From Anaerolineales bacterium (lineage in GTDB: Bacteria; Chloroflexota; Anaerolineae; Anaerolineales; UBA11579), in assembly GCA_026129255.1 (NCBI GenBank), contig JAHCIJ010000002.1, positions 125,799 to 189,798 on the forward strand: a stretch of DNA of 64,000 bases. The letters are read 5' to 3'. The notes beneath the pieces are model-generated. The model did not search any database. It saw only the letters and a program-made list of their open reading frames with translations, and had not been told where the DNA came from. Position numbers and translations under genes: made by a program. Positions 1,905 through 63,955 of this stretch are shown in pieces. How positions within the stretch are numbered: the first letter of the stretch is position 1; every line of letters begins with the position of its first letter.

Positions 1905-1934
1905 GTGTCGCCCTGAGCAGAGCGAAGGGCATTC
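1905..1934 (+). repeat. hairpin repeat, GCCCT/AGGGC subfamily; left terminal copy flanking GIY-YIG gene 1
   Basis: GTGTC-GCCCT-GAGC-AGA-GCGA-AGGGC-ATTC. Its reverse-complement partner is at 2284..2311. Confidence 0.75.
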
Positions 1935-1957: not shown

Positions 1958-2254
1958 ATGACTGAAGCCTACGTCTACATTCTCGGCAACAAAGGCGGCA
2001 GGCTCTATGTAGGTGTAACCAATGACCTACAGCGTCGCGTGCATGAGCACAAAACTAAAGCCACCCCTGGATATGCCAGCAAGCTAGGCATATCTCGCCT
2101 CTTGTACTTTGAGACCTTCAATCACATTGTCGATGCGATAGCTGCAGAAAAGCAGATCAAGGGCTGGATACGAAGCAAGAAGCTGGATTTAATCCGTCAG
2201 CACAACCCTAAGTTTGAAGATTTAAGTGCTGATTGGTTTGAATCAGACTCCTAA
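1958..2254 (+). CDS. GIY-YIG nuclease family protein (COG2827/URI-type, 98 aa)
   Basis: YVYILGN..GRLYVGVTNDLQRRVHEH...EKQIKGW motifs. Visibly AT-richer than its neighbours. Flanked by inverted repeat copies. Confidence 0.85.
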   Translation: MTEAYVYILGNKGGRLYVGVTNDLQRRVHEHKTKATPGYASKLGISRLLYFETFNHIVDAIAAEKQIKGWIRSKKLDLIRQHNPKFEDLSADWFESDS

Positions 2255-2283: not shown

Positions 2284-2311
2284 GTGCTCTTCGCTGCGCT
2301 CAGGGCGACAC
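2284..2311 (-). repeat. hairpin repeat, GCCCT subfamily, inverted; right terminal copy flanking GIY-YIG gene 1
   Basis: Its reverse complement is GTGTCGCCCTGAGC-GCA-GCGAAG-AGCAC. It matches 1905..1928 except for the 3-nt loop. Confidence 0.75.
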
Positions 2312-4421: not shown

Positions 4422-4924
4422 ACCTCGGCACTCCGTTGCCCGAGTTCAGTATCCAGCCAGCTGTGTTGCAGCACGCTGCCGCCATCCATCAACTCATCCA
4501 AGAAGCCGACTTGTTCCAGCACGGACTGGACTGGCGCAACTTCCTGGTCGCCCTCACACCCTCCGGCGAGTTCATCGGCTGCGGCCAAGTCAAGCAACAT
4601 CGTGACGGCACCTGGGAGCTGGCCTCGATCGCCGTGCTGCCCGCCTGGCAAGGCCGCGGCGTGGGCCGCGCCGTCATTGAGGCTTTATTGGCCAGGCACC
4701 CAGGCGAGTTGTATCTCATGAGCATCTCCGCCCTCAAGCCGCTGTACGAGAAATTCGGCTTCGTGGAAATAGCTCCACCTCGGAGTTCGCACAGCGAACT
4801 CCCGCGCAACGCAGTTGCGCAAATGCCAAAATACTTTCGCCGCCTGACTCGGATGCCCGCCATGATCGCTGAATTTGAACGTGTATATGAGCGTATTATG
4901 GTGATGAAGCGCGAGGCCGCATGA
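4418..4924 (+). CDS. GNAT family N-acetyltransferase carrying an in-frame hairpin-element insertion near the C-terminus
   Basis: Acetyl-CoA site WQGRGVGRAVI. ATGA start/stop overlap with gatB. Codons RSSHSELPRNAVAQ are encoded by the double-hairpin element 4782..4827. Confidence 0.85.
   Translation: MNLGTPLPEFSIQPAVLQHAAAIHQLIQEADLFQHGLDWRNFLVALTPSGEFIGCGQVKQHRDGTWELASIAVLPAWQGRGVGRAVIEALLARHPGELYLMSISALKPLYEKFGFVEIAPPRSSHSELPRNAVAQMPKYFRRLTRMPAMIAEFERVYERIMVMKREAA
4782..4827 (+). repeat. 46-nt double-hairpin element, copy 1 (inside the GNAT coding sequence)
   Basis: GAGTTCGC-aca-GCGAACTC followed by GCGCAAC-gca-GTTGCGC. Identical to copy 2 except for the first loop. Confidence 0.8.
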
Positions 4925-5064
4925 AGCTTGTATGCATACTCAAAGCCGCATGGAGTTCGCTACGCGAACTCCCGCGCAACGCAGTTGCGCAAATGCCCGC
5001 CATGCTTGCCGAGTTCGAACGGGTAGGTGAGCGCATCATGGTGATGCGCCGAGTGGGCGCATGA
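4921..5064 (+). pseudogene. 47-codon ORF, a diverged tandem duplicate of the GNAT C-terminal tail (relic or coupled micro-ORF)
   Basis: My own translation: MKLVCILKAAWSSLRELPRNAVAQMPAMLAEFERVGERIMVMRRVGA. It parallels the GNAT tail ...SELPRNAVAQMP..MPAMIAEFERVYERIMVMKREAA. Its ATG overlaps the GNAT stop (ATGA 4921-4924) and its stop overlaps the next start (ATGA 5061-5064). Too short for the ORF track. Confidence 0.35.
4952..4997 (+). repeat. 46-nt double-hairpin element, copy 2
   Basis: GAGTTCGC-tac-GCGAACTC followed by GCGCAAC-gca-GTTGCGC, 170 nt downstream of copy 1. Confidence 0.8.
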
Positions 5065-5431: not shown

Positions 5432-5540
5432 GGGGATTGCTTCACTCGCTACGCTCGCTCGCAAAGACAAGCACGACCGTCTTTGCGAGGAGAGCTGAAA
5501 GTTGCATATTGATGCAACTTTCAGCCCCGAAGCAATCCCC
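5432..5540. repeat. hairpin repeats, ATTGC/GCAAT subfamily, head-to-head dimer
   Basis: Inverted copy at 5432..5468 (GGGGATTGCTTC...CTCGCAAAGAC), a 10-nt spacer, then direct copy at 5479..5540 (GTCTTTGCGAGGAG-[32-nt inner hairpin]-CCCGAAGCAATCCCC). Confidence 0.8.
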
Positions 5541-5584
5541 AAGCAAGCTGGCGAAACAGCCCTCAGGCTGCCTGTACGCAAGTA

Positions 5585-12415: not shown

Positions 12416-12477
12416 GTCATTGCGAGGAGGGCTGAGAGTTGCATGTTCATGCAACTCTCAGCCCCGAAGCAATCCCC
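12416..12477 (+). repeat. hairpin repeat, ATTGC/GCAAT subfamily
   Basis: GTCATTGCGAGGAG-[GCTGAGAGTTGCAT-gttc-ATGCAACTCTCAGC]-CCCGAAGCAATCCCC. Confidence 0.85.
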
Positions 12478-12547
12478 ACGCTAGCTATACATTCTGGCCT
12501 GGCTGTACCAGACGCGCTCTGCACCAAACAGATAAAATCTGCCTAGC

Positions 12548-14694: not shown

Positions 14695-15688
14695 GCCTGT
14701 AGTGCATGATCTGCAGGTGGCCGCCGGCCCGCAGCGGCTGGACAAGTTCCTGGTAGAGCAGCTGCCAGACTTCTCCCGGGCGCGCCTGCAAGCGCTCATT
14801 AAAGAGGGCCGCGTGCAGGTGGATGGCAAAGCCGCCAGCAAGAGCGGCCAGACGCTGGAAGGGGGCGAGGCGGTGCAAGTGCAGGTGCCGCCTGCCGCGC
14901 CCAGCGAACTGATCCCTGAAGCCATTCCGCTGGATGTGATCTTTGAGAATAACGATGTGCTCATCGTGAACAAGCCCGCTGGCATGGTGGTGCACCCGGC
15001 CGCCGGACACAATACCAGCACCCTCATCCACGCCGCCCTGGCGCACGCCCCGCAGATCCAGGGTGTGGGCGGCGAGCTGCGCCCTGGCCTCGTCCACCGC
15101 TTGGACAAAGACACCTCGGGCCTCATCGTGCTGGCCAAGAATGACGCCGCCCACCACGCCCTGCAGGCCCAGTTCCAGCAGCGCAGCGCACAGAAGACCT
15201 ACATCGCTCTCGTGGATGGCCGCCCCAACACGCCCGAGGGGCGTATTGAGGCCGCCATCGGGCGTGACCTGCGTGAGCGCAAGCGCATGAGCGTCGTGCG
15301 CTCTGCCGGCGGCCGCGGCCGCGGCCGTGAAGCGGTGAGCGAGTACCGCACCCTGCACGAGTACGACGATCACACCCTGCTTGAGGTCAATATCCACACC
15401 GGGCGCACCCACCAAATTCGCGTCCACCTCGCTTTCATCCGTTGCCCGGTTGTGGGCGACACCGTCTATGGTCGCCGCAAACCCAGCCTGCCGCTCAAAC
15501 GCCAATTCCTGCATGCCGCCCGCCTCGGGCTGACCCTGCCCGGCGAGACCGAGATGCGCATCTTCAGCGCACCGCTGCCGGCAGACCTGCAGCATGTGCT
15601 GAATAATATGCGTGACAGATTTAGTTGTCATTCTGAGCCAGCAAGCGGCTTGCCGCTTGCGCCAGCGAAGAATCCATCCTCAAGTTGA
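14675..15688 (+). CDS. rluD: RluA/RluD family 23S rRNA pseudouridine synthase; the last ~20 codons are read from a hairpin repeat
   Basis: S4 domain, catalytic HRLDKDTSGL, and HTGRTHQIRVH. The tail SCHSEPASGLPLAPAKNPSSS is encoded by repeat 15627..15675. Confidence 0.9.
   Translation: MTKPQAEPVVHDLQVAAGPQRLDKFLVEQLPDFSRARLQALIKEGRVQVDGKAASKSGQTLEGGEAVQVQVPPAAPSELIPEAIPLDVIFENNDVLIVNKPAGMVVHPAAGHNTSTLIHAALAHAPQIQGVGGELRPGLVHRLDKDTSGLIVLAKNDAAHHALQAQFQQRSAQKTYIALVDGRPNTPEGRIEAAIGRDLRERKRMSVVRSAGGRGRGREAVSEYRTLHEYDDHTLLEVNIHTGRTHQIRVHLAFIRCPVVGDTVYGRRKPSLPLKRQFLHAARLGLTLPGETEMRIFSAPLPADLQHVLNNMRDRFSCHSEPASGLPLAPAKNPSSS
15627..15675 (+). repeat. hairpin repeat, ATTCT/AGAAT subfamily
   Basis: GTC-ATTCT-GAGC-ca-[GCAAGCGG-cttg-CCGCTTGC]-gcca-GCGA-AGAAT-CC. 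Confidence 0.8.
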
Positions 15689-15753: not shown

Positions 15754-15816
15754 GGATTCCTCACTAGTTAGGGTTCGGCGGGTCTGGTGGTGAGCTATCA
15801 ATCCGTTCGGAATGAC
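15754..15816 (-). repeat. hairpin repeat, ATTCC/GGAAT subfamily, inverted, long variable insert
   Basis: GGATTCCTCAC-[38 nt]-CGTTCGGAATGAC. Confidence 0.75.
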
Positions 15817-24386: not shown

Positions 24387-24523
24387 GGGGATTGCTTCGT
24401 CGGCGTGCTGCGCACGCCTTACACGGCAGCCGCACAGCATGCGGCTGCCGCCTCGCAATGACGATCCCGGGCGTCATTGCGAGGAGCGCTGCATCCTAAA
24501 ATGCAGCCGACGAAGCAATCCCC
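24387..24523. repeat. hairpin repeats, ATTGC/GCAAT subfamily, head-to-head dimer
   Basis: Inverted copy at 24387..24462 (GGGGATTGCTTCGTC-[two inner hairpins]-CCTCGCAATGAC), a 10-nt spacer, then direct copy at 24473..24523 (GTCATTGCGAGGAG-[GCTGCAT-cctaaa-ATGCAGC]-CGACGAAGCAATCCCC). Confidence 0.85.
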
Positions 24524-26155: not shown

Positions 26156-26297
26156 GTCATTCCGAACGAAGTGAGGAATCCGTTAAGGGTCGGAGTTAGA
26201 CGGTGCTTGTCTGAGAAAGGTCTTGCGCAGATGGGTAGTACGTTTTCGTACGCACAACGGATTCCTCCTCACCGCTGCGCGGCTCGTTCGGAATGAC
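26156..26297. repeat. hairpin repeats, ATTCC/GGAAT subfamily, tail-to-tail pair enclosing 72 nt
   Basis: Direct copy at 26156..26184 (GTCATTCCGAACG-aagt-GAGGAATCCGTT) and inverted copy at 26256..26297 (AACGGATTCCTC...CGTTCGGAATGAC). Confidence 0.8.
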
Positions 26298-26378: not shown

Positions 26379-26463
26379 GTCATCCTGAGCGGGTAAATCA
26401 AACCACACCAGATCACCGAACCCAGGATAGCGAAGGATCCTTCGCTGCACTCAGGGTGCACGC
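26379..26463. repeat. hairpin repeat, ATCCT/AGGAT subfamily, plus a fused inverted partial copy
   Basis: GTC-ATCCT-GAGCG-[45 nt]-GCGA-AGGAT-CC. The 16-nt perfect palindrome GCGAAGGATCCTTCGC joins it to an inverted GTGCACCCTGAGTGCAGCGAA half. Confidence 0.65.
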
Positions 26464-33412: not shown

Positions 33413-33814
33413 GTGGATATGAAAAAGCAGATTGTTGTTCTTGTACTTCTGGCCGCGGCGCTCGCGGCCTGTGGCGCCCCGGCCGCCGAGAAGCCGGATG
33501 GCACGCACGGCCCGGTGTACTTTGACTCGCTCAACGTGCTGGTGCTGGAGAGCTTTCCTATCCAGCTGCGCCTGGTGATGCAGGGCAACCTGCCTACGCC
33601 GTGCCATGAATTGGCCTATACGATCGCCGCGCCCAATGCCGCCAACGAGATCCATATCGAGGTCTACACCACAGTCGACCCGGCCGTCACCTGCATGCAG
33701 GTGCTGCAGCCCTTCGATGAGTCCATCGCCATCCCGCTGGATGGTGTGCCGGATGGTGAGTACAGCCTGTGGGTCAACGGCGAGCAGGCCGGCGAGTTCA
33801 GCTATCCGGGGTAA
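33413..33814 (+). CDS. hypothetical lipoprotein
   Basis: Lipobox LLAAALAAC. GTG 33413 or ATG 33419, with GGAGG upstream. Confidence 0.65.
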   Translation: MDMKKQIVVLVLLAAALAACGAPAAEKPDGTHGPVYFDSLNVLVLESFPIQLRLVMQGNLPTPCHELAYTIAAPNAANEIHIEVYTTVDPAVTCMQVLQPFDESIAIPLDGVPDGEYSLWVNGEQAGEFSYPG

Positions 33815-33901
33815 GCTGTAGTTGCTCGCTCGCCGTCATTGCGAGGAGTAGTCGCTGCGTAGCAACGGCAACGGACGAAGCAATCTCCAAACTGTAACTG
33901 C

Positions 33902-33965
33902 ACATTGACGAGGGGATTGCTTCGTCGGCTGCACTTCGTGCAGCACTCCTCGCAATGACGTAGAA
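33902..33965 (+). repeat. 64-nt exact direct repeat, copy 1
   Basis: CTGTAACTGCACATTGACGAGGGGATTGCTTCGTCGGCTGCACTTCGTGCAGCACTCCTCGCAA, identical to 34197..34260. Confidence 0.85.
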
Positions 33966-34196
33966 CCATCATTGCGAGGCGCAGGCAGGTCTGCGCACGA
34001 AGCAATCTGAGTTGCAATCCTGCCCCGCGCAAAAGCTTGTTTGTCATTCCGAACGAGGCCGAAGGCCGAGGAGGAATCCGTTATAGGCTGGTTTGAGTTA
34101 AGGCATATGTGGTGGAGCACAAACCACCTGAGTTCGGATTCTTCCGCTGGGCTTCACAGCGGCAACGGACAAGCAATCGATTGCACAATCCCCAAG

Positions 34197-34260
34197 CTGT
34201 AACTGCACATTGACGAGGGGATTGCTTCGTCGGCTGCACTTCGTGCAGCACTCCTCGCAA
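34197..34260 (+). repeat. 64-nt exact direct repeat, copy 2
   Basis: Identical to 33902..33965. Confidence 0.85.
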
Positions 34261-34279
34261 AGACGTAAATTGCCCTTAC

Positions 34280-34318
34280 AAAAAAGAGGCGCAGCATTTG
34301 CTGCGCCTCTTTTTTTTT
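34280..34318. terminator. bidirectional intrinsic terminator; terminates etfBA on the minus strand
   Basis: AAAAAA-GAGGCGCAGCA-tt-TGCTGCGCCTC-TTTTTTTTT. Confidence 0.85.
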
Positions 34319-34387
34319 AGTCAGGTAATTGACGACAACTCAGACTTTAGACCTACAAGCTGAAAGCTAACAGCTAACCGCTAATAG

Positions 34388-35422
34388 CTACTTACCCAGC
34401 CGCTCCTGGAACGCCTTGGTCAGCGCCGGTACGATCTCGTACAGATCGCCCACTACGCCAAAGCGCGCCAGCTTGAAGATCGGCGCGTCCGGGTCTTTGT
34501 TCACGGCCACGATCACCTTGCTGGTGCGCATGCCCGCCAGATGCTGGATGGCGCCGGAGATGCCCAGCGCGATGTATAGATCCGGCGAGACCACTTTGCC
34601 GGTCTGGCCGACTTGATTGGCATACGGAATGTAGCCCGCATCCACCGCAGCGCGGCTGGCGCCCACCGCGCCGTTCAGCGCCTGGGCCAGCTCGCCGATC
34701 ATGACGAAGCCCTGCTGGGCACGCCAGATCTCCTTCTCTTTCTCGTCGGTGATCTCGGCTGGCGGCGTCAGGGCCGGGTTGTTGGCCACGCCGCGCCCAC
34801 CCGAGATAATCACACCTGCATCGCCCAGGCTGACGCGGCCTTCCACGGTGGCGTAATCCACCACCTTGGTTTGCAAGTCACCCTCAGCCACGGCGGCGGC
34901 CACCTTGGTGACCGTGCCGCTGCGGCTGGCGTCCGCCGCCGGCTTGCCGAAGGCGCGCCCGCGTAGCGTGATCAGCGCTGGCTTGGCGTTCACCACCACT
35001 TTGCTCAGCAGCTTGCCGGCATAAATGGGGTGGATGGCAGCCAGTGTGCCGCCTTCATCTTTGATCTCGGTAACATCCGGCAGCACGCCGCTGTCCATGT
35101 CGATCGCCGCCATGGCGGCGATCTCACGCCCGCGCGTGCTGGTGGGGAACAGCACCGCATCCGGTTGCTGCTCCTTGGCCAGCTTGCTCAGCAAGCTGGC
35201 ATATGCCTCGGCGCGGTAATCGGCCAGGCTGGCGTCCTCGCCCAACAGCACCTCGTCGGCGCCGTAGTGGAAGGCGGTCTGTGCCAGCGCGTCCACACCC
35301 TCACCGAAGATGAGCGCGGTCACTTTACTGCCGATCGTCTTGGCGGCTGCGATGGCCTCATACGAGGCGGGCAGGGCCGCGCCTTTGAAATGGTCTACGT
35401 ACACCCACACGTTGCCAGCCAC
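34388..35422 (-). CDS. etfA: electron transfer flavoprotein subunit alpha
   Basis: FAD-binding C-terminal region: [34 protein letters not shown]. Confidence 0.92.
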
Positions 35423-36195
35423 TACAGCACCCCTTCAGCAATGATCAGGTCGGCCAGCTTGGCGGCGATCTCATCGGCATTGGCGCCGGTGATCATTTCG
35501 TTGGTCACTTCACGTTGGGCGGGAGCCGTGATCTCGCTCCAGCTCACCTTGGATTCCGGTGCGCCGATGCCGAGGTCACCCAGGCTCCATACGGGAATCT
35601 CGGCCTTGGAGGCCTTGCGGATGCCCATGAAGGATGGGTAGCGTGGCTCAGAAAAATCTTTGACGATGCTGAGCACCGCCGGCAGCTTGCCTTCCACCAC
35701 CTGGCGGCCTTCTTCGATGGCGCGCTCCACTTTGATCGTGCCAGCCTCCAGCGCCGGGATGGCAGCTATCATGCTCAGCACGGGCCAGCCCAGCACACGC
35801 GCCGTCATGGCCGGGGCCAGGCCGGTGTCTGAGTCGATGGCTTGGCGGCCGAAAACCGCCAGGTCTACGCCGCCCAGCTTTTGCACTGCGGCGGCAAACA
35901 CGCGGGCGGCCGCAGTGGCGTCTGCCGCGGCCAGCGCCGGGTCGCTGATCAGCGTGGCGCTGTTAGCGCCCATCGCCAGGGCGTGTTTGAGCGCCTCTTT
36001 GGCGTTCTCATCGCCCAGGCTGAAGGCGGCCACTTCGCCGTTGTGCTTCTCGGCCAGTTGCAGCGCGGCCTCAACGGCATATTCATCCCACGGGTTGATC
36101 ACCAGCGGGGCGTCGCCCCAATTCACAACACCGTTATCCACCGTCAGCTTGGCGGCAGAATCCGGCACTTGTTTCACAAAGACTGCTATTTTCAA
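35422..36195 (-). CDS. etfB: electron transfer flavoprotein subunit beta
   Basis: MKIAVFVKQVPD...INPWDEYAVE.AL. Its stop abuts the etfA start. Confidence 0.92.
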   Translation of the reverse strand: MKIAVFVKQVPDSAAKLTVDNGVVNWGDAPLVINPWDEYAVEAALQLAEKHNGEVAAFSLGDENAKEALKHALAMGANSATLISDPALAAADATAAARVFAAAVQKLGGVDLAVFGRQAIDSDTGLAPAMTARVLGWPVLSMIAAIPALEAGTIKVERAIEEGRQVVEGKLPAVLSIVKDFSEPRYPSFMGIRKASKAEIPVWSLGDLGIGAPESKVSWSEITAPAQREVTNEMITGANADEIAAKLADLIIAEGVL

Positions 36196-36216
36196 CGTTC
36201 CTCCTAGCTTTTCCTC

Positions 36217-36286
36217 GTCATTGCGAGGAGTATGCAGTGTGATGCATGAAATGCATCACACTGCAACGGACGAAGCAATCTGGTTT
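36217..36286 (+). repeat. hairpin repeat, ATTGC/GCAAT subfamily; terminal copy flanking GIY-YIG gene 2
   Basis: GTCATTGCGAGGAG-[TGCAGTGTGATGCAT-gaa-ATGCATCACACTGCA]-ACGGACGAAGCAATCTGGTTT. Confidence 0.85.
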
Positions 36287-36291
36287 TAAGC

Positions 36292-36588
36292 CTAACTAAA
36301 AAGCTCCGTGTACAAATCTCTCCACTCAGGATTGATACTTTCTATCAGATCAATCTTTCTTTGTCTTGAACCAGCCTTGATCTGCTTCTCTCGGGCAATG
36401 GCGTCAAGCATTTGTTCAGTGGTTTCAAAATACACCAGTTTGTTTACACGATACTTTGCAGTAAACCTTCCTGGCACCTGTTCTCGATGTTCCAAAACCC
36501 TTCGTTGCAGGTTGTTAGTTACACCGGTGTACAGGACTTTATTATGACTATTCGTCATTATGTAAACGCAGGGTTGGTTTTCGCTCAT
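36292..36588 (-). CDS. GIY-YIG nuclease family protein (COG2827/URI-type, 98 aa)
   Basis: Start moved to ATG 36588 (MSENQPCVYIMTN...LYTGVTNNLQRRVLEH...EKQIKAG). The 13 extra N-terminal codons of the track ORF (MSLRAQRSNLVSS) are read from the flanking repeat. AT-richer than its flanks. Confidence 0.85.
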   Translation of the reverse strand: MSENQPCVYIMTNSHNKVLYTGVTNNLQRRVLEHREQVPGRFTAKYRVNKLVYFETTEQMLDAIAREKQIKAGSRQRKIDLIESINPEWRDLYTELFS

Positions 36589-36593
36589 GCTTG

Positions 36594-36625
36594 AAACCAG
36601 ATTGCTTCGCTGCGCTCGCAATGAC
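36594..36625 (-). repeat. hairpin repeat, ATTGC/GCAAT subfamily, inverted; terminal copy flanking GIY-YIG gene 2
   Basis: AAACCAGATTGCTTCG-CTGCG-CTCGCAATGAC. It ends 5 nt from the acd stop codon. Confidence 0.85.
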
Positions 36626-36629
36626 AAGA

Positions 36630-37841
36630 TTATCCTTCAGCCTGCCAGTACTCCGCATCATAGGCGGGTAGCTCACAGCGCAGCTCGGCATCCTTGCGGT
36701 AGCCCAGCGCGTAGCCAGCCTGCATCAGTTGGTGAATTTCACTCGTGCCTTCGTAGATCACGCCACCCTTGGAATTCCGCAGGTAGCGTTCCACATCGTA
36801 CTCATCGCTGTAACCATAGGCGCCGTGCACTTGAATGGCTTCGGAAGCGGCGTCAAACGACGCGTCGGTGGCGTACCACTTGGCCAGCGAGGTCTCGCGC
36901 GTGTTGCGCTCGCCGCGGTTCTTCATCCAGCCCGCTTTCAAGTACAACAAGCGTGAGGTCTCGTATTGCTGCACCATGTAGGCGATCTTTTGTTGTATCA
37001 GTTGGAACTGGCCAATCTCTTTGTTGAACGCCTTGCGCTCATGCGAGTACTTGACACTGGCTTCCAGGCTGGCACGTACCAAGCCAGTAGCCCCAGCCGC
37101 CACGGTGTAGCGGCCGTTGTCCAGGCAGGACATGGCGATCTTGAAGCCTTCGCCTTCCTGGCCCAGTAGGTTGGCGGCGGGCACATGCACATCCTGCATG
37201 GCAATGTAGCCGGTAGACCCGGCGCGCATGCCCAGCTTGCCGTGGATATCGCCGGTGGTGATGCCCTTGCGGTCCAGCTCCACGATGAAGGCGCTGAGCC
37301 CGTCATGCGGGTCAGCATCCGGGTTGGTGCGTGCCACGATCAGCGCATGGTGCGCCTTGCTGGCCAGCGAGATCCACATCTTCTCGCCGTTCAGCACGTA
37401 CTCATCGCCCACTTTGCGGGCGGTGGCCTTCATGCCAGCCACGTCAGAGCCAGCGCCTGGCTCGGTCAGGCCGAAGCAGGCGTATTTCTCGCCCTTGGCT
37501 TGCGGTGTGAGGAACTTTTGCTTCTGCTCCTCGGTGCCCCATTGCAGCAGGGCCATGCTGTTGAGGCCCATGTGTACAGACATCACCACGCGCAGCGGGC
37601 TGTCACCCGCTTCCAGCTCCTCGCACACCAGCCCGAGGGTGATGTAGTCAAAGCCCTGGCCGCCGTAGCGCACTGGCACATTAATGCCCAGGATGCCCAG
37701 CTCAGCCATTCGCGGCAAAATGAAGGGGGCCATCTCTTGTTTGCGGTCCCACTCCTGGATGACGGGCTTGACTTCTTTCTGTACGAAGTCTCGCACCATC
37801 TTTTGCACCATCAGGTGCTCTTCACTTAATTGAAAGTCCAT
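36630..37841 (-). CDS. acyl-CoA dehydrogenase
   Basis: ACAD N-terminal, middle and C-terminal domains (CFGLTEPGAGSD, YIAMQDV, IYEGTSEIHQL). Confidence 0.92.
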   Translation of the reverse strand: MDFQLSEEHLMVQKMVRDFVQKEVKPVIQEWDRKQEMAPFILPRMAELGILGINVPVRYGGQGFDYITLGLVCEELEAGDSPLRVVMSVHMGLNSMALLQWGTEEQKQKFLTPQAKGEKYACFGLTEPGAGSDVAGMKATARKVGDEYVLNGEKMWISLASKAHHALIVARTNPDADPHDGLSAFIVELDRKGITTGDIHGKLGMRAGSTGYIAMQDVHVPAANLLGQEGEGFKIAMSCLDNGRYTVAAGATGLVRASLEASVKYSHERKAFNKEIGQFQLIQQKIAYMVQQYETSRLLYLKAGWMKNRGERNTRETSLAKWYATDASFDAASEAIQVHGAYGYSDEYDVERYLRNSKGGVIYEGTSEIHQLMQAGYALGYRKDAELRCELPAYDAEYWQAEG

Positions 37842-50050: not shown

Positions 50051-50113
50051 GGATTCTTCCCTGGTCTGGGCTCGGCGATTCGGGTGTGCATGTACAAACC
50101 CGGTCAGAATGAC
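50051..50113 (-). repeat. hairpin repeat, ATTCT/AGAAT subfamily, inverted
   Basis: GGATTCTTCC-[42 nt]-GGTCAGAATGAC. Confidence 0.65.
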
Positions 50114-53884: not shown

Positions 53885-53946
53885 GGATTCCTCACTGATA
53901 CAGCCTCGGTAGGCAGGTGTAGGCTTAATCACCCGTTCGGAATGAC
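53885..53946 (-). repeat. hairpin repeat, ATTCC/GGAAT subfamily, inverted
   Basis: GGATTCCTCAC-[37 nt]-CCGTTCGGAATGAC. Confidence 0.75.
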
Positions 53947-53999: not shown

Positions 54000-54047
54000 G
54001 TCATTGTGAGGAGTGCTGCACGAAGTGCAGCCGACGAAGCAATCTCC
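54000..54047 (+). repeat. hairpin repeat, ATTGC/GCAAT subfamily
   Basis: GTCATTGTGAGGAG-[TGCTGCAC-gaa-GTGCAGC]-CGACGAAGCAATCTCC. Same inner hairpin as the copies at 33922 and 34217. Confidence 0.85.
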
Positions 54048-63701: not shown

Positions 63702-63738
63702 AGCAGGCTGATTCTATCGTATGGCCTGCCTTTCCTCA

Positions 63739-63955
63739 TAGGAAATCCTGATGATTGACACGGCGTACGCCCATGGTGCCTGTAGGAATCTTGATGATTG
63801 ACAGAGCGTACGCCCAACGTTCCCTAGGAAACCTGATGATTGACAGGGCGCACGCCCCAGGGTGCCTTTAGGAATCTTGATGATTGACAGGGCGAAACGC
63901 CCAACGTCCCCTAGGAAACCTGATGATTGACAACGCGTACTATTCCTCTTAGACT
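63739..63955. repeat. tandem repeat: five 42-44-nt units alternating between two subtypes (about 2.5 copies of an ~86-nt unit)
   Basis: Units start at 63739, 63783, 63825, 63869 and 63912. Each has the form TAGGAAwCyTGATGATTGACA-sr-GCGyACGCCC... Odd and even units form two subtypes. Confidence 0.85.

Follow-up and report, generated by a model that had tools for sequence, protein, structure and literature searches.

Within a 64,000-nt stretch of the genome of an Anaerolineales bacterium (contig JAHCIJ010000002.1, positions 125,799 to 189,798 of the forward strand; hereafter the window, in whose coordinates positions are given), a unit of about 410 bp occupies the operon spacer between acd, which encodes an acyl-CoA dehydrogenase (ACD), and etfB. 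Judged from its sequence, this unit is very probably an SRM-ssn-SRM module, that is, the gene of an Ssn-family single-stranded DNA (ssDNA) endonuclease framed by inverted cognate hairpin repeats, and the repeat itself is an Ssn-related motif (SRM) of the CGTC/TGTC-tagged repetitive extragenic palindrome (REP) kind. The gene, designated ssn-2, encodes a single-domain GIY-YIG nuclease of 98 aa on the minus strand (36292..36588) and was recognized from the open reading frame (ORF) list, Pfam and homology to SsnA of Neisseria. The SRM upstream of ssn-2 (36594..36625, minus strand) is a short-loop form that reads GTCATTGCGAG-CGCAG-CGAAGCAATC-TGGTTT on the gene strand; it was identified from the sequence and is conserved in two related genomes (L001 and L002, see below). 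The SRM downstream of the gene (36217..36286, plus strand) is inverted with respect to the upstream copy and contains a 15-bp inner hairpin (ssDNA fold z -7.6). The 16-nt sequence CGAAGCAATCTGGTTT is present at 36271-36286 (+) and 36594-36609 (-) with 0 mismatches. The GC content of ssn-2 is 41.8%, versus 61.4% for the window and 60-66% for the neighbouring genes. An earlier note on this DNA had described a 98-codon GIY-YIG ORF on the minus strand between acd and etfB, a direct and an inverted repeat copy around it with perfect 16-nt arms, and a unit richer in AT than its flanks, and in all of these it was correct.

Single-domain GIY-YIG Ssn nucleases and SRM hairpins were described by Chenal et al. 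2025 (Nat Commun 16:2388, PMC11893778). NMV_0044 (SsnA) of Neisseria meningitidis, a single-domain GIY-YIG protein of 94 aa belonging to CDD family cd10448, binds the NTS repeat CGTCATTCCCGCGMAVGCGGGAATCYRG only in the form of ssDNA, cleaving a few nt 5′ of the NTS; it neither binds RNA nor cuts double-stranded DNA (dsDNA) (PMC11893778). Cleavage depends on the three bases 5′ of the palindrome and binding on the C that follows it, and the loop of the NTS is dispensable and can be extended (PMC11893778). Enzymes from Neisseria, N. elongata, N. wadsworthii and Wolbachia were assayed, and Ssn homologues were found across many phyla, with at least one SRM in 71% of cases and SRMs on both sides in 42% (PMC11893778). 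The same paper likened the NTS-ssnA-NTS layout to an insertion sequence (IS) and to RAYT/REP/BIME systems, and raised mobility as a hypothesis. The earlier note knew of no description of such a system; the Ssn/SRM system had in fact been published, the RAYT/REP comparison included, and no later Ssn work was found in our follow-up literature search. The unit in the window is a further member of the published system, and its repeat variant escapes the published pattern.

The assignment of the gene to the Ssn family is based on the following observations. A tblastn search with the window protein (7.3-Gb database) gave a sole match in one N. gonorrhoeae chromosome (E 8e-18), and the matched ORF, of 94 aa, was surrounded by NTS repeats. 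This N. gonorrhoeae orthologue, extracted in the present analysis, and not the assayed N. meningitidis protein, was used as the SsnA comparator; it was taken from one of two N. gonorrhoeae chromosome records that are filed as plasmids in PLSDB (NZ_CP119140.1 and NZ_CP119142.1, both 2.17 Mb and evidently chromosomes). The ssn-2 product is 43% identical to it in a gapless alignment over 93 aa (E 1e-27), and the product of ssn-1, a second paralogue in the window described below, is 37% identical end to end (E 1e-21), so that both lie below the E < 1e-10 by which Ssn homology was judged in PMC11893778. Residues Y9, Y20 and E67 of the ssn-2 product align with Y6, Y17 and E64 of SsnA, the same residues are present in the ssn-1 product, and they are invariant or almost so across 26 homologues. 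The mutations Y6A, Y17A and E64A abolish SsnA nuclease activity (PMC11893778).

The ssn-2 product generated a hit on GIY-YIG in Pfam (PF01541, E 7e-16, residues 6-78), with no second domain, and its AlphaFold2 model predicts one compact GIY-YIG fold (pLDDT 90.7), to which UPF0213 protein BH0048, Slx1 and the N-terminal domain of UvrC are the nearest solved folds. A sequence search of solved structures returned no match at E up to 0.01, and NCBIfam, PADLOC and PHROGs generated generic, weak GIY-YIG matches only. Relatives of the protein fill at least 8000 database clusters; the named ones among the matches listed belong to Anaerolineales/Chloroflexota.

The repeats accompany the gene in other genomes. 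A total of 80 metagenome loci encoding relatives at 55-70% identity were scanned for elements under a strict definition (GTC, a 5-nt stem starting with A/T, at most 70 nt, the exact stem complement, and C). By this definition, an element was located within 200 nt of the gene on the upstream side at 53 of 73 loci, on the downstream side at 60 of 72, and on both sides at 41 of 65. Element density was 6.8/kb within 200 nt of the gene versus 0.43/kb beyond 500 nt, a 16-fold enrichment. The commonest layout (25 loci) was that of the window, a forward element followed by the gene and an inverted element. With a looser descriptor (GTC-N5-GAR...SGA(A)-N5-C), 75 of the 80 real flanks generated a hit, versus a mean of 11 of 80 for shuffled flanks. 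The ssn gene was always found in the spacer of a doublet, either tail-to-tail, as in the window, or head-to-head (L083, L098 and L135), and it also sits between two complete doublets (L083, L087, L098 and L135). Its AT content exceeded that of the flanks at 60 of 62 other loci. The earlier note had inferred that gene and hairpins form a cognate pair resembling RAYT and REP, and had proposed a check on whether related GIY-YIG genes carry flanking copies; the enrichment, the occurrence on both sides and the paralogue-specific repeat types described below bear out the inference, and the check gave a positive answer.

The gene neighbourhoods of three homologues were recorded in addition. One (L087, 1501-1797) lies between Type III mod and res, another (L178, 1486-1770) lies between the gene for an MmeI-type enzyme and DISARM drmA on a Planktothrix plasmid, and the third (L189, 1501-1833) directly follows hsdR.

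The published SRM pattern, HGTCWYN(0-2)YYVSBRHN(0-5)WNVSBRGN(0-2)RNCYNB, which had been hand-built from 29 genomes (PMC11893778), gave 0 matches in the window and in 0 of 80 loci (9 matches in 3.3 kb of Neisseria DNA as a control); therefore, a structural scan was written. The SRM variant of this clade consists of YGTC, a 5-bp outer stem, GAG and CGA(A) boxes around a variable inner hairpin, and a final C. The inner insert varies from 0 nt to a hairpin of about 40 nt, and the interior of the element measures 16-54 nt, often with a hairpin of its own. The main stem is ATTGC/GCAAT, and rare stems with compensatory changes are ACTGC/GCAGT, ATTAC/GTAAT and ATCGC/GCGAT. Conservation of the tag was measured on 313 copies anchored by ATTGCGA or AAGCAAT, with the flanking bases left free. 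The three bases 5′ of the stem were G, T and C at 91-92% each, the base 3′ of the stem was C at 87%, and the base before GTC was T at 63% and C at 21%. The conserved YGTC tag and the 3′ C thus match the positions that are critical in the published system, which are the three nt preceding the palindrome on its 5′ side and the C that follows. The GAG and CGA(A) boxes, which could form tandem G.A pairs, are also present in a copy on a Planktothrix plasmid.

Copies of the element are dispersed in the window. The sequence CGAAGCAATCTGGTTT with at most 3 mismatches occurred 4 times, versus 0.41 expected by chance, and the 11-mer core GTCATTGCGAG with at most 1 mismatch occurred 12 times, versus 1.7 expected, a number that none of 100 shuffles reached. 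A relaxed scan yielded 12 complete GTCATTGCGAG...CGAAGCAATC elements, the two flanking ssn-2 and ten without a gene. The ten gene-less elements are all intergenic and occupy five regions, or six if the groups at 33835-34007 and 34220-34264 are split; the ten copies at six loci given in the earlier note are thus reproduced, depending on the grouping. Five of the ten form two head-to-head doublets and a solo copy: a doublet of the GTCTTTGC variant at 5435-5468 (-) and 5479-5537 (+), a solo SRM at 12416-12474 (plus strand), and a doublet at 24390-24462 (-) and 24473-24520 (+), in which the GTC ends stand face to face 10 nt apart. The segments 5479-5549 and 12416-12486 are 89% identical, and the doublet at 24390-24520 is predicted to fold into a large cruciform-type structure (z -13). 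A gene-less cluster 3′ of etfA (33835..34264) contains four ATTGC-type SRMs in alternating orientation, at 33835-33885 (+), 33915-33959 (-), 33968-34007 (+) and 34220-34264 (-), together with one GTCATTCC..GGAATC SRM at 34043-34078; an 82-nt segment of the cluster is present in duplicate (96% identity). No remnant of ssn was detected inside this cluster by tblastn. The last copy is a solo SRM at 54000-54044 (plus strand), and its inner hairpin matches those of 33915-33959 and 34220-34264 at 94-96% over 49 nt, 20 kb apart. Counted over the window, three doublets are head-to-head (5435-5537, 24390-24520 and 33915-34007) and one is tail-to-tail (33835-33959), which are small numbers; tail-to-tail SRM pairs also frame each of the two ssn genes in the window.

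The element survey of the earlier note stands for the ATTGC-type copies, and it overlooked the second GIY-YIG gene and the GTCATTCC...GGAATC subfamilies. Further SRM subfamilies, of the GTCATTCCGAAC..GAGGAATC and GTCATTCTGAG..CGAAGAATC types, were observed at 26156-26180 (+), 26260-26297 (-), 34043-34078 (+) and 15627-15674 (+), all of them intergenic, and these types resemble the Neisseria NTS more than the ATTGC type does. Four intergenic SRM-like elements of 61-62 nt, GTCATYCY...RGRATC, are located at 15755-15816 (-), 26379-26439 (+), 50052-50113 (-) and 53886-53946 (-); they have a common inner core, CGG(G/A)T..ACACC..CCGA(R)CC, which is not a simple hairpin, and may be a distinct composite subfamily that has no cognate ssn gene in the window.

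The elements were also compared with RNA families. A scan of the whole window with Rfam at the gathering threshold gave 0 matches, and a permissive scan of 33700-36700 gave sub-threshold matches only, mostly to small RNA and microRNA families near the etfA terminator, none of them credible. A hammerhead-like core, considered on account of the GUC and the GA-rich boxes, was rejected because the conserved boxes come in the wrong order and none of the ribozyme models gave a score. Two other repeats, separate from the SRMs, were noticed in the window: five tandem copies of a 43-44-nt unit (...TAGGAAAYCTGATGATTGACAGGGCG...), unrelated to SRMs, at the window end (63725-63940), and a duplicated segment of about 140-170 nt (46 nt at 93% and 72 nt at 78%) at 4782-5064, which spans the 3′ end of an acetyltransferase ORF and the sequence downstream of it.

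The second Ssn paralogue in the window, ssn-1 (1958..2254, plus strand), likewise encodes a GIY-YIG protein of 98 aa with homology to SsnA, and the two proteins are 45% identical. In the repeat scan, a forward SRM of a different type, GTCGCCCTGAG-CAGAG-CGAAGGGC-A, was located upstream of ssn-1 (1907..1931, plus strand), with a degenerate extra copy at 1828-1850, and an inverted SRM of this type was located downstream of the gene (2286..2311, minus strand), the 41-nt arms being 78% complementary. Orthologues of ssn-1 (87% identity) are syntenic in L193 and L194, downstream of a 3-hydroxyacyl-CoA dehydrogenase gene. The ssn-1-type SRM, GTCRCCCTGAG..CGAAGGG, also flanks the orthologues in L193, L194 and L198, that is, in four genomes including the window, the other three being Anaerolineales. 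Upstream of ssn-1, L194 carries a seven-copy tandem array (SRM plus leader, period about 70 nt), and L193 and the window carry two copies. A 12-mer of the ssn-1 type with 2 mismatches was not enriched in the window (16 versus 13 expected), where only the gene-adjacent copies stand out. Each ssn paralogue carries its own cognate SRM type. In an exact look-up, the ssn-1 protein was found not to be on record.

On the left border of the ssn-2 module, acd (36630..37841, minus strand; Pfam Acyl-CoA_dh_N, _M and _1) ends with a stop codon 4 nt from the upstream SRM. On the right border, about 21-22 nt, carrying the etfB ribosome-binding site, separate the downstream SRM from the TTG start of etfB (35422..36195, minus strand; Pfam ETF), which is followed by etfA (34388..35422, minus strand; expected Pfam domain). 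No T-tract terminators were found at the ssn-2 module.

With the ACD protein as query, 80 orthologous loci were retrieved from species-representative genomes. The ssn-2 gene with both flanking elements was present at the same acd-etfB place in two Anaerolineales metagenome-assembled genomes (MAGs), L002 (86%) and L001 (83%), and the insert begins 1-4 nt past the acd stop. In L003-L009, whose ACD proteins are 77-84% identical, the acd-etfB spacer measures 43-67 nt and contains neither gene nor element, and tight acd-etfB spacing is common among the fetched loci. These indicate that the unit was inserted in an ancestor shared by the window genome, L001 and L002. No target-site duplication was visible at the module borders, and the spacers of the empty sites have diverged too far for alignment with the filled site. 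The earlier note had also proposed a comparison of orthologous loci; its expectation that the unit is not fixed held, with two close genomes filled and the next seven empty, and the stable synteny of the unit where it is present speaks against current hopping.

The ratio of nonsynonymous to synonymous substitutions (dN/dS) of ssn-2 versus its L002 orthologue is 0.045, indicating purifying selection. Its synonymous divergence (36292-36588 versus L001:3600-3866 and L002:4001-4267) is 2.2 or saturated, versus 0.45-0.9 for acd, etfB and etfA; the excess could be due to local hypermutation, to weak codon bias, the gene being AT-rich, or to paralogous copies having replaced it. The gene stays AT-rich in the window, L001 and L002. 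Between these three genomes, the outer boxes of the orthologous SRMs are conserved and the inner hairpins are unrelated, the upstream SRM of L001 having an inner hairpin of about 35 nt in place of CGCAG. One inner hairpin of L002 closely resembles, by inspection, the window copies at 5479 and 12416. The gene-less cluster downstream of etfA (430 nt) is absent from L002, the closest relative, which has only a terminator and 20 nt before the next gene, and L001 has a different SRM cluster after etfA; gain or loss of SRM arrays thus occurred between genomes with 95% identical ACD proteins. From this cluster polymorphism, and from the near-identical hairpins 20 kb apart, it follows that turnover of the repeats is much faster than movement of the gene. 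Four homologues, found on 9 to 24 contigs each, had one gene context apiece. Together with the synteny of both paralogues, this marks ssn as a long-resident gene, not a hopping insertion sequence.

A separate observation was made in the acd-etfB spacer of another Anaerolineales MAG, L052 (about 2260-2335). This spacer contains a gene-less tail-to-tail SRM pair, GTCATTGCAAGCC..GAAGCACTCTC, 13 nt, GAATTGCTTCC..CTCGCAATGAC, without an ssn insert, which landed independently in the same operon spacer.

Several points weigh against the assignment of the unit to an SRM-ssn-SRM module. As the published SRM pattern matches none of these elements, the specificity is extrapolated, and the enzymology is borrowed from other clades, the comparison with SsnA having used the N. 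gonorrhoeae orthologue. By nearest-neighbour energy, the hairpin of the short SRM is weak (-2.7 kcal/mol, z +0.95), and the outer stem is only 5 bp, versus 9 bp in Neisseria. The high dS of ssn relative to its neighbours also means that strict vertical descent may be an incomplete account of the gene.

In common with the published Ssn/SRM pairs, the window has 98-aa proteins that are 37-43% identical to the Neisseria orthologue and keep the Y/Y/E residues, a gene with hairpin repeats on both sides, many further intergenic copies of these repeats without a gene, a variable loop, and paralogue-specific cognate repeats. Like the NTS, CGTCATTCCCGCG..CGCGGGAATC, the window repeat has a (C/T)GTC-AT... 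5′ end and an ...AT-C 3′ end. It differs in its host, which belongs to Chloroflexota (Anaerolineales; Chloroflexi are not mentioned in PMC11893778), and in its 5-bp outer stem, GAG and CGA(A) boxes and inner hairpin, and the window clade is known from sequence alone. The comparison of filled and empty sites was made here and is not part of the main text of PMC11893778.

The repeats also resemble the CGTC-tagged REPs of Di Nocera et al. 2013 (BMC Genomics 14:522, PMC3733652), which include dRS3 of Neisseria and RPE-4/6 of Rickettsia. In those elements the CGTC/TGTC tag is unpaired, the stem begins with A-T in its first two positions, and the tail is short; they commonly form head-to-head dimers and are intergenic. 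No dedicated enzyme was found for them, and Chloroflexi were listed for GTAG repeats only (PMC3733652). The window repeats likewise have a YGTC tag 5′ of ATTGC, A-T at the first stem positions, a short unpaired tail and an intergenic location, but have 5-bp stems and long structured inserts in place of 8-9-bp stems and 4-5-nt loops. The ssn homologue of pNL2 in Novosphingobium aromaticivorans, a species listed for CGTC-2 repeats (PMC3733652), is framed by inverted CGTC-GCCCCGTG-CTTGA-CACGGGGC repeats.

Two further comparisons concern the enzyme as well as the repeat, and one starts from the small nuclease gene framed by inverted hairpin repeats, with gene-less singlets and doublets scattered in intergenic DNA. 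In a REPtron, the gene for RAYT (TnpA-REP, a Y1 HUH transposase) lies between inverted REPs, whose dispersed copies form REPINs or BIMEs. The window system shares with it this layout, an enzyme that acts on ssDNA hairpins (for Ssn, as seen in published relatives), and a single-locus gene with vertical inheritance and purifying selection. It differs in having a GIY-YIG hydrolytic nickase rather than an HUH tyrosine enzyme with a covalent intermediate, and a GTC tag rather than GTAG; in addition, enzyme-driven mobilization of the repeats is a hypothesis for Ssn. The catalytic fold is common to the window protein, the GIY-YIG homing endonucleases (I-TevI, I-BmoI and Seg) and Slx1/UPF0213. Unlike those homing endonucleases, the window protein has no DNA-binding extension and no intron or phage context, and its gene lies in a chromosomal operon spacer. 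The published Ssn substrate is an ssDNA hairpin, versus the duplex or branched DNA of other GIY-YIG enzymes.

A mechanism can be proposed from the published enzymology of four Ssn proteins. Ssn would bind the folded SRM on the forward-sense strand when the region becomes single-stranded, for example as lagging-strand template, during repair or in incoming DNA, and would then nick a few nt 5′ of GTC. At the acd-etfB site, the minus strand is predicted to be nicked at about 36626-36632, where the acd stop codon lies, and the plus strand at about 36208-36216, in the interval separating the SRM from the etfB ribosome-binding site, so that the predicted nicks would fall just outside the module on opposite strands. 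Neither dsDNA nor RNA would be expected to serve as substrate. As to the role of the module, we tentatively favour a long-resident, RAYT-like "domesticated" nuclease whose nicks at SRMs shape ssDNA recombination or processing, seeding the spread and turnover of SRMs as a by-product, with no present hopping.

A possible but less probable explanation is that Ssn serves the host by ssDNA restriction or recombination control, as in Neisseria, the SRM positions being selected by the host and the flanking copies mainly regulating or protecting the ssn locus. Knockout of ssnA in N. meningitidis gave a 5-fold higher transformation rate in an NTS-dependent manner (PMC11893778). Strong purifying selection and long residence agree with such a role, and so does the frequent location of homologues in or beside restriction-modification or defence operons (L087, L178 and L189), but nothing here points to natural transformation in this Anaerolineales lineage and no PADLOC defence family was matched beyond the weak GIY-YIG similarity. 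Host control also leaves the spread of SRMs and the regular framing of the gene unexplained.

The earlier note had viewed the unit as a GIY-YIG-driven REPtron counterpart, in which the nuclease mobilizes or maintains its hairpin family. In such a reading, the unit would be an autonomous, active IS-like transposon with the nuclease as transposase, and gene-less doublets would be non-autonomous derivatives at present moved in trans, comparable to REPINs or to miniature inverted-repeat transposable elements. The layout resembles terminal inverted repeats, the whole unit is inserted relative to empty sister sites, and gene-less pairs (33835-33959 and the L052 spacer) share the geometry of the module ends. 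The polymorphism of SRM arrays at 95% ACD identity, the near-identical SRMs at distant loci, the seven-copy array of L194 versus two copies in L193 and the AT-richness of ssn in 60 of 62 loci also speak for this reading, and the same idea was raised in PMC11893778. However, in four tests, each covering 9 to 24 contigs, identical proteins occurred in a single context; the two window paralogues keep their synteny in relatives at a dS of 0.5-0.9; no target-site duplication is visible; and the 64 kb contain more than 20 SRMs but just 2 ssn genes. GIY-YIG enzymes nick DNA hydrolytically, and no strand-transfer chemistry is known for them; thus, joining would have to come from host repair. An active IS is therefore unlikely as an explanation. 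Classification of the unit as an insertion sequence was rejected, since the window genes are 45% identical, each identical protein has one context and there is no target-site duplication. We also regard as doubtful the related proposal that SRM-ssn-SRM is, or recently was, a self-propagating cassette that relies on a hydrolytic GIY-YIG ssDNA nickase together with host repair and has given rise to the SRM singlets and doublets as non-autonomous descendants.

A free-standing homing endonuclease that cuts gene-less SRM doublets, with repair copying the gene in from a filled doublet, is very improbable. The GIY-YIG fold is a classic homing-endonuclease fold, the gene is always in a doublet spacer, and replacement by paralogues could account for the excess dS of ssn, whose site is syntenic. 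Against these stand a single-domain protein without a DNA-binding extension of the I-TevI type, the inability of SsnA to cut dsDNA, the absence of a gene from most doublets, and the failure to find identical copies at several sites.

Coincidence, in which the hairpins would be ordinary REP-like terminators, mRNA stabilizers or an RNA element unrelated to the nuclease gene, has in its favour that the elements are intergenic, often directly after genes, and that CGTC-type REPs were long thought to have no dedicated enzyme (PMC3733652), but it can safely be dismissed because of the 16-fold, orientation-biased enrichment by ssn across 80 unrelated loci, the paralogue-specific element types and the descriptor count of 75 versus 11 of 80, to which the lack of an Rfam match and of T-tract terminators at the module and the binding of ssDNA, not RNA, by SsnA (PMC11893778) are added.

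Filled and empty acd-etfB sites, together with the array polymorphisms, show that cassette and repeats are inserted DNA, which is the kind of evidence needed by the "domesticated IS" hypothesis of PMC11893778; acd-etfB provides a filled and empty pair for the whole cassette, and the cluster downstream of etfA provides a presence/absence polymorphism for gene-less repeats. The results also expose a blind spot, as the published pattern wholly fails to detect the SRM architecture of a very large clade of Ssn homologues, and this clade may be under-counted in the published association statistics. The long, variable inner hairpins are natural counterparts of the loop extensions that the authors of PMC11893778 engineered for programmable ssDNA cutting, and two pairs of paralogue and repeat in one 64-kb stretch form a direct test bed for co-evolved specificity. 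If the SRM-ssn-SRM cassette does prove to be self-propagating, it would provide the "orphan" CGTC-type REPs with their enzyme and would represent a new mechanistic class of bacterial mobile DNA.

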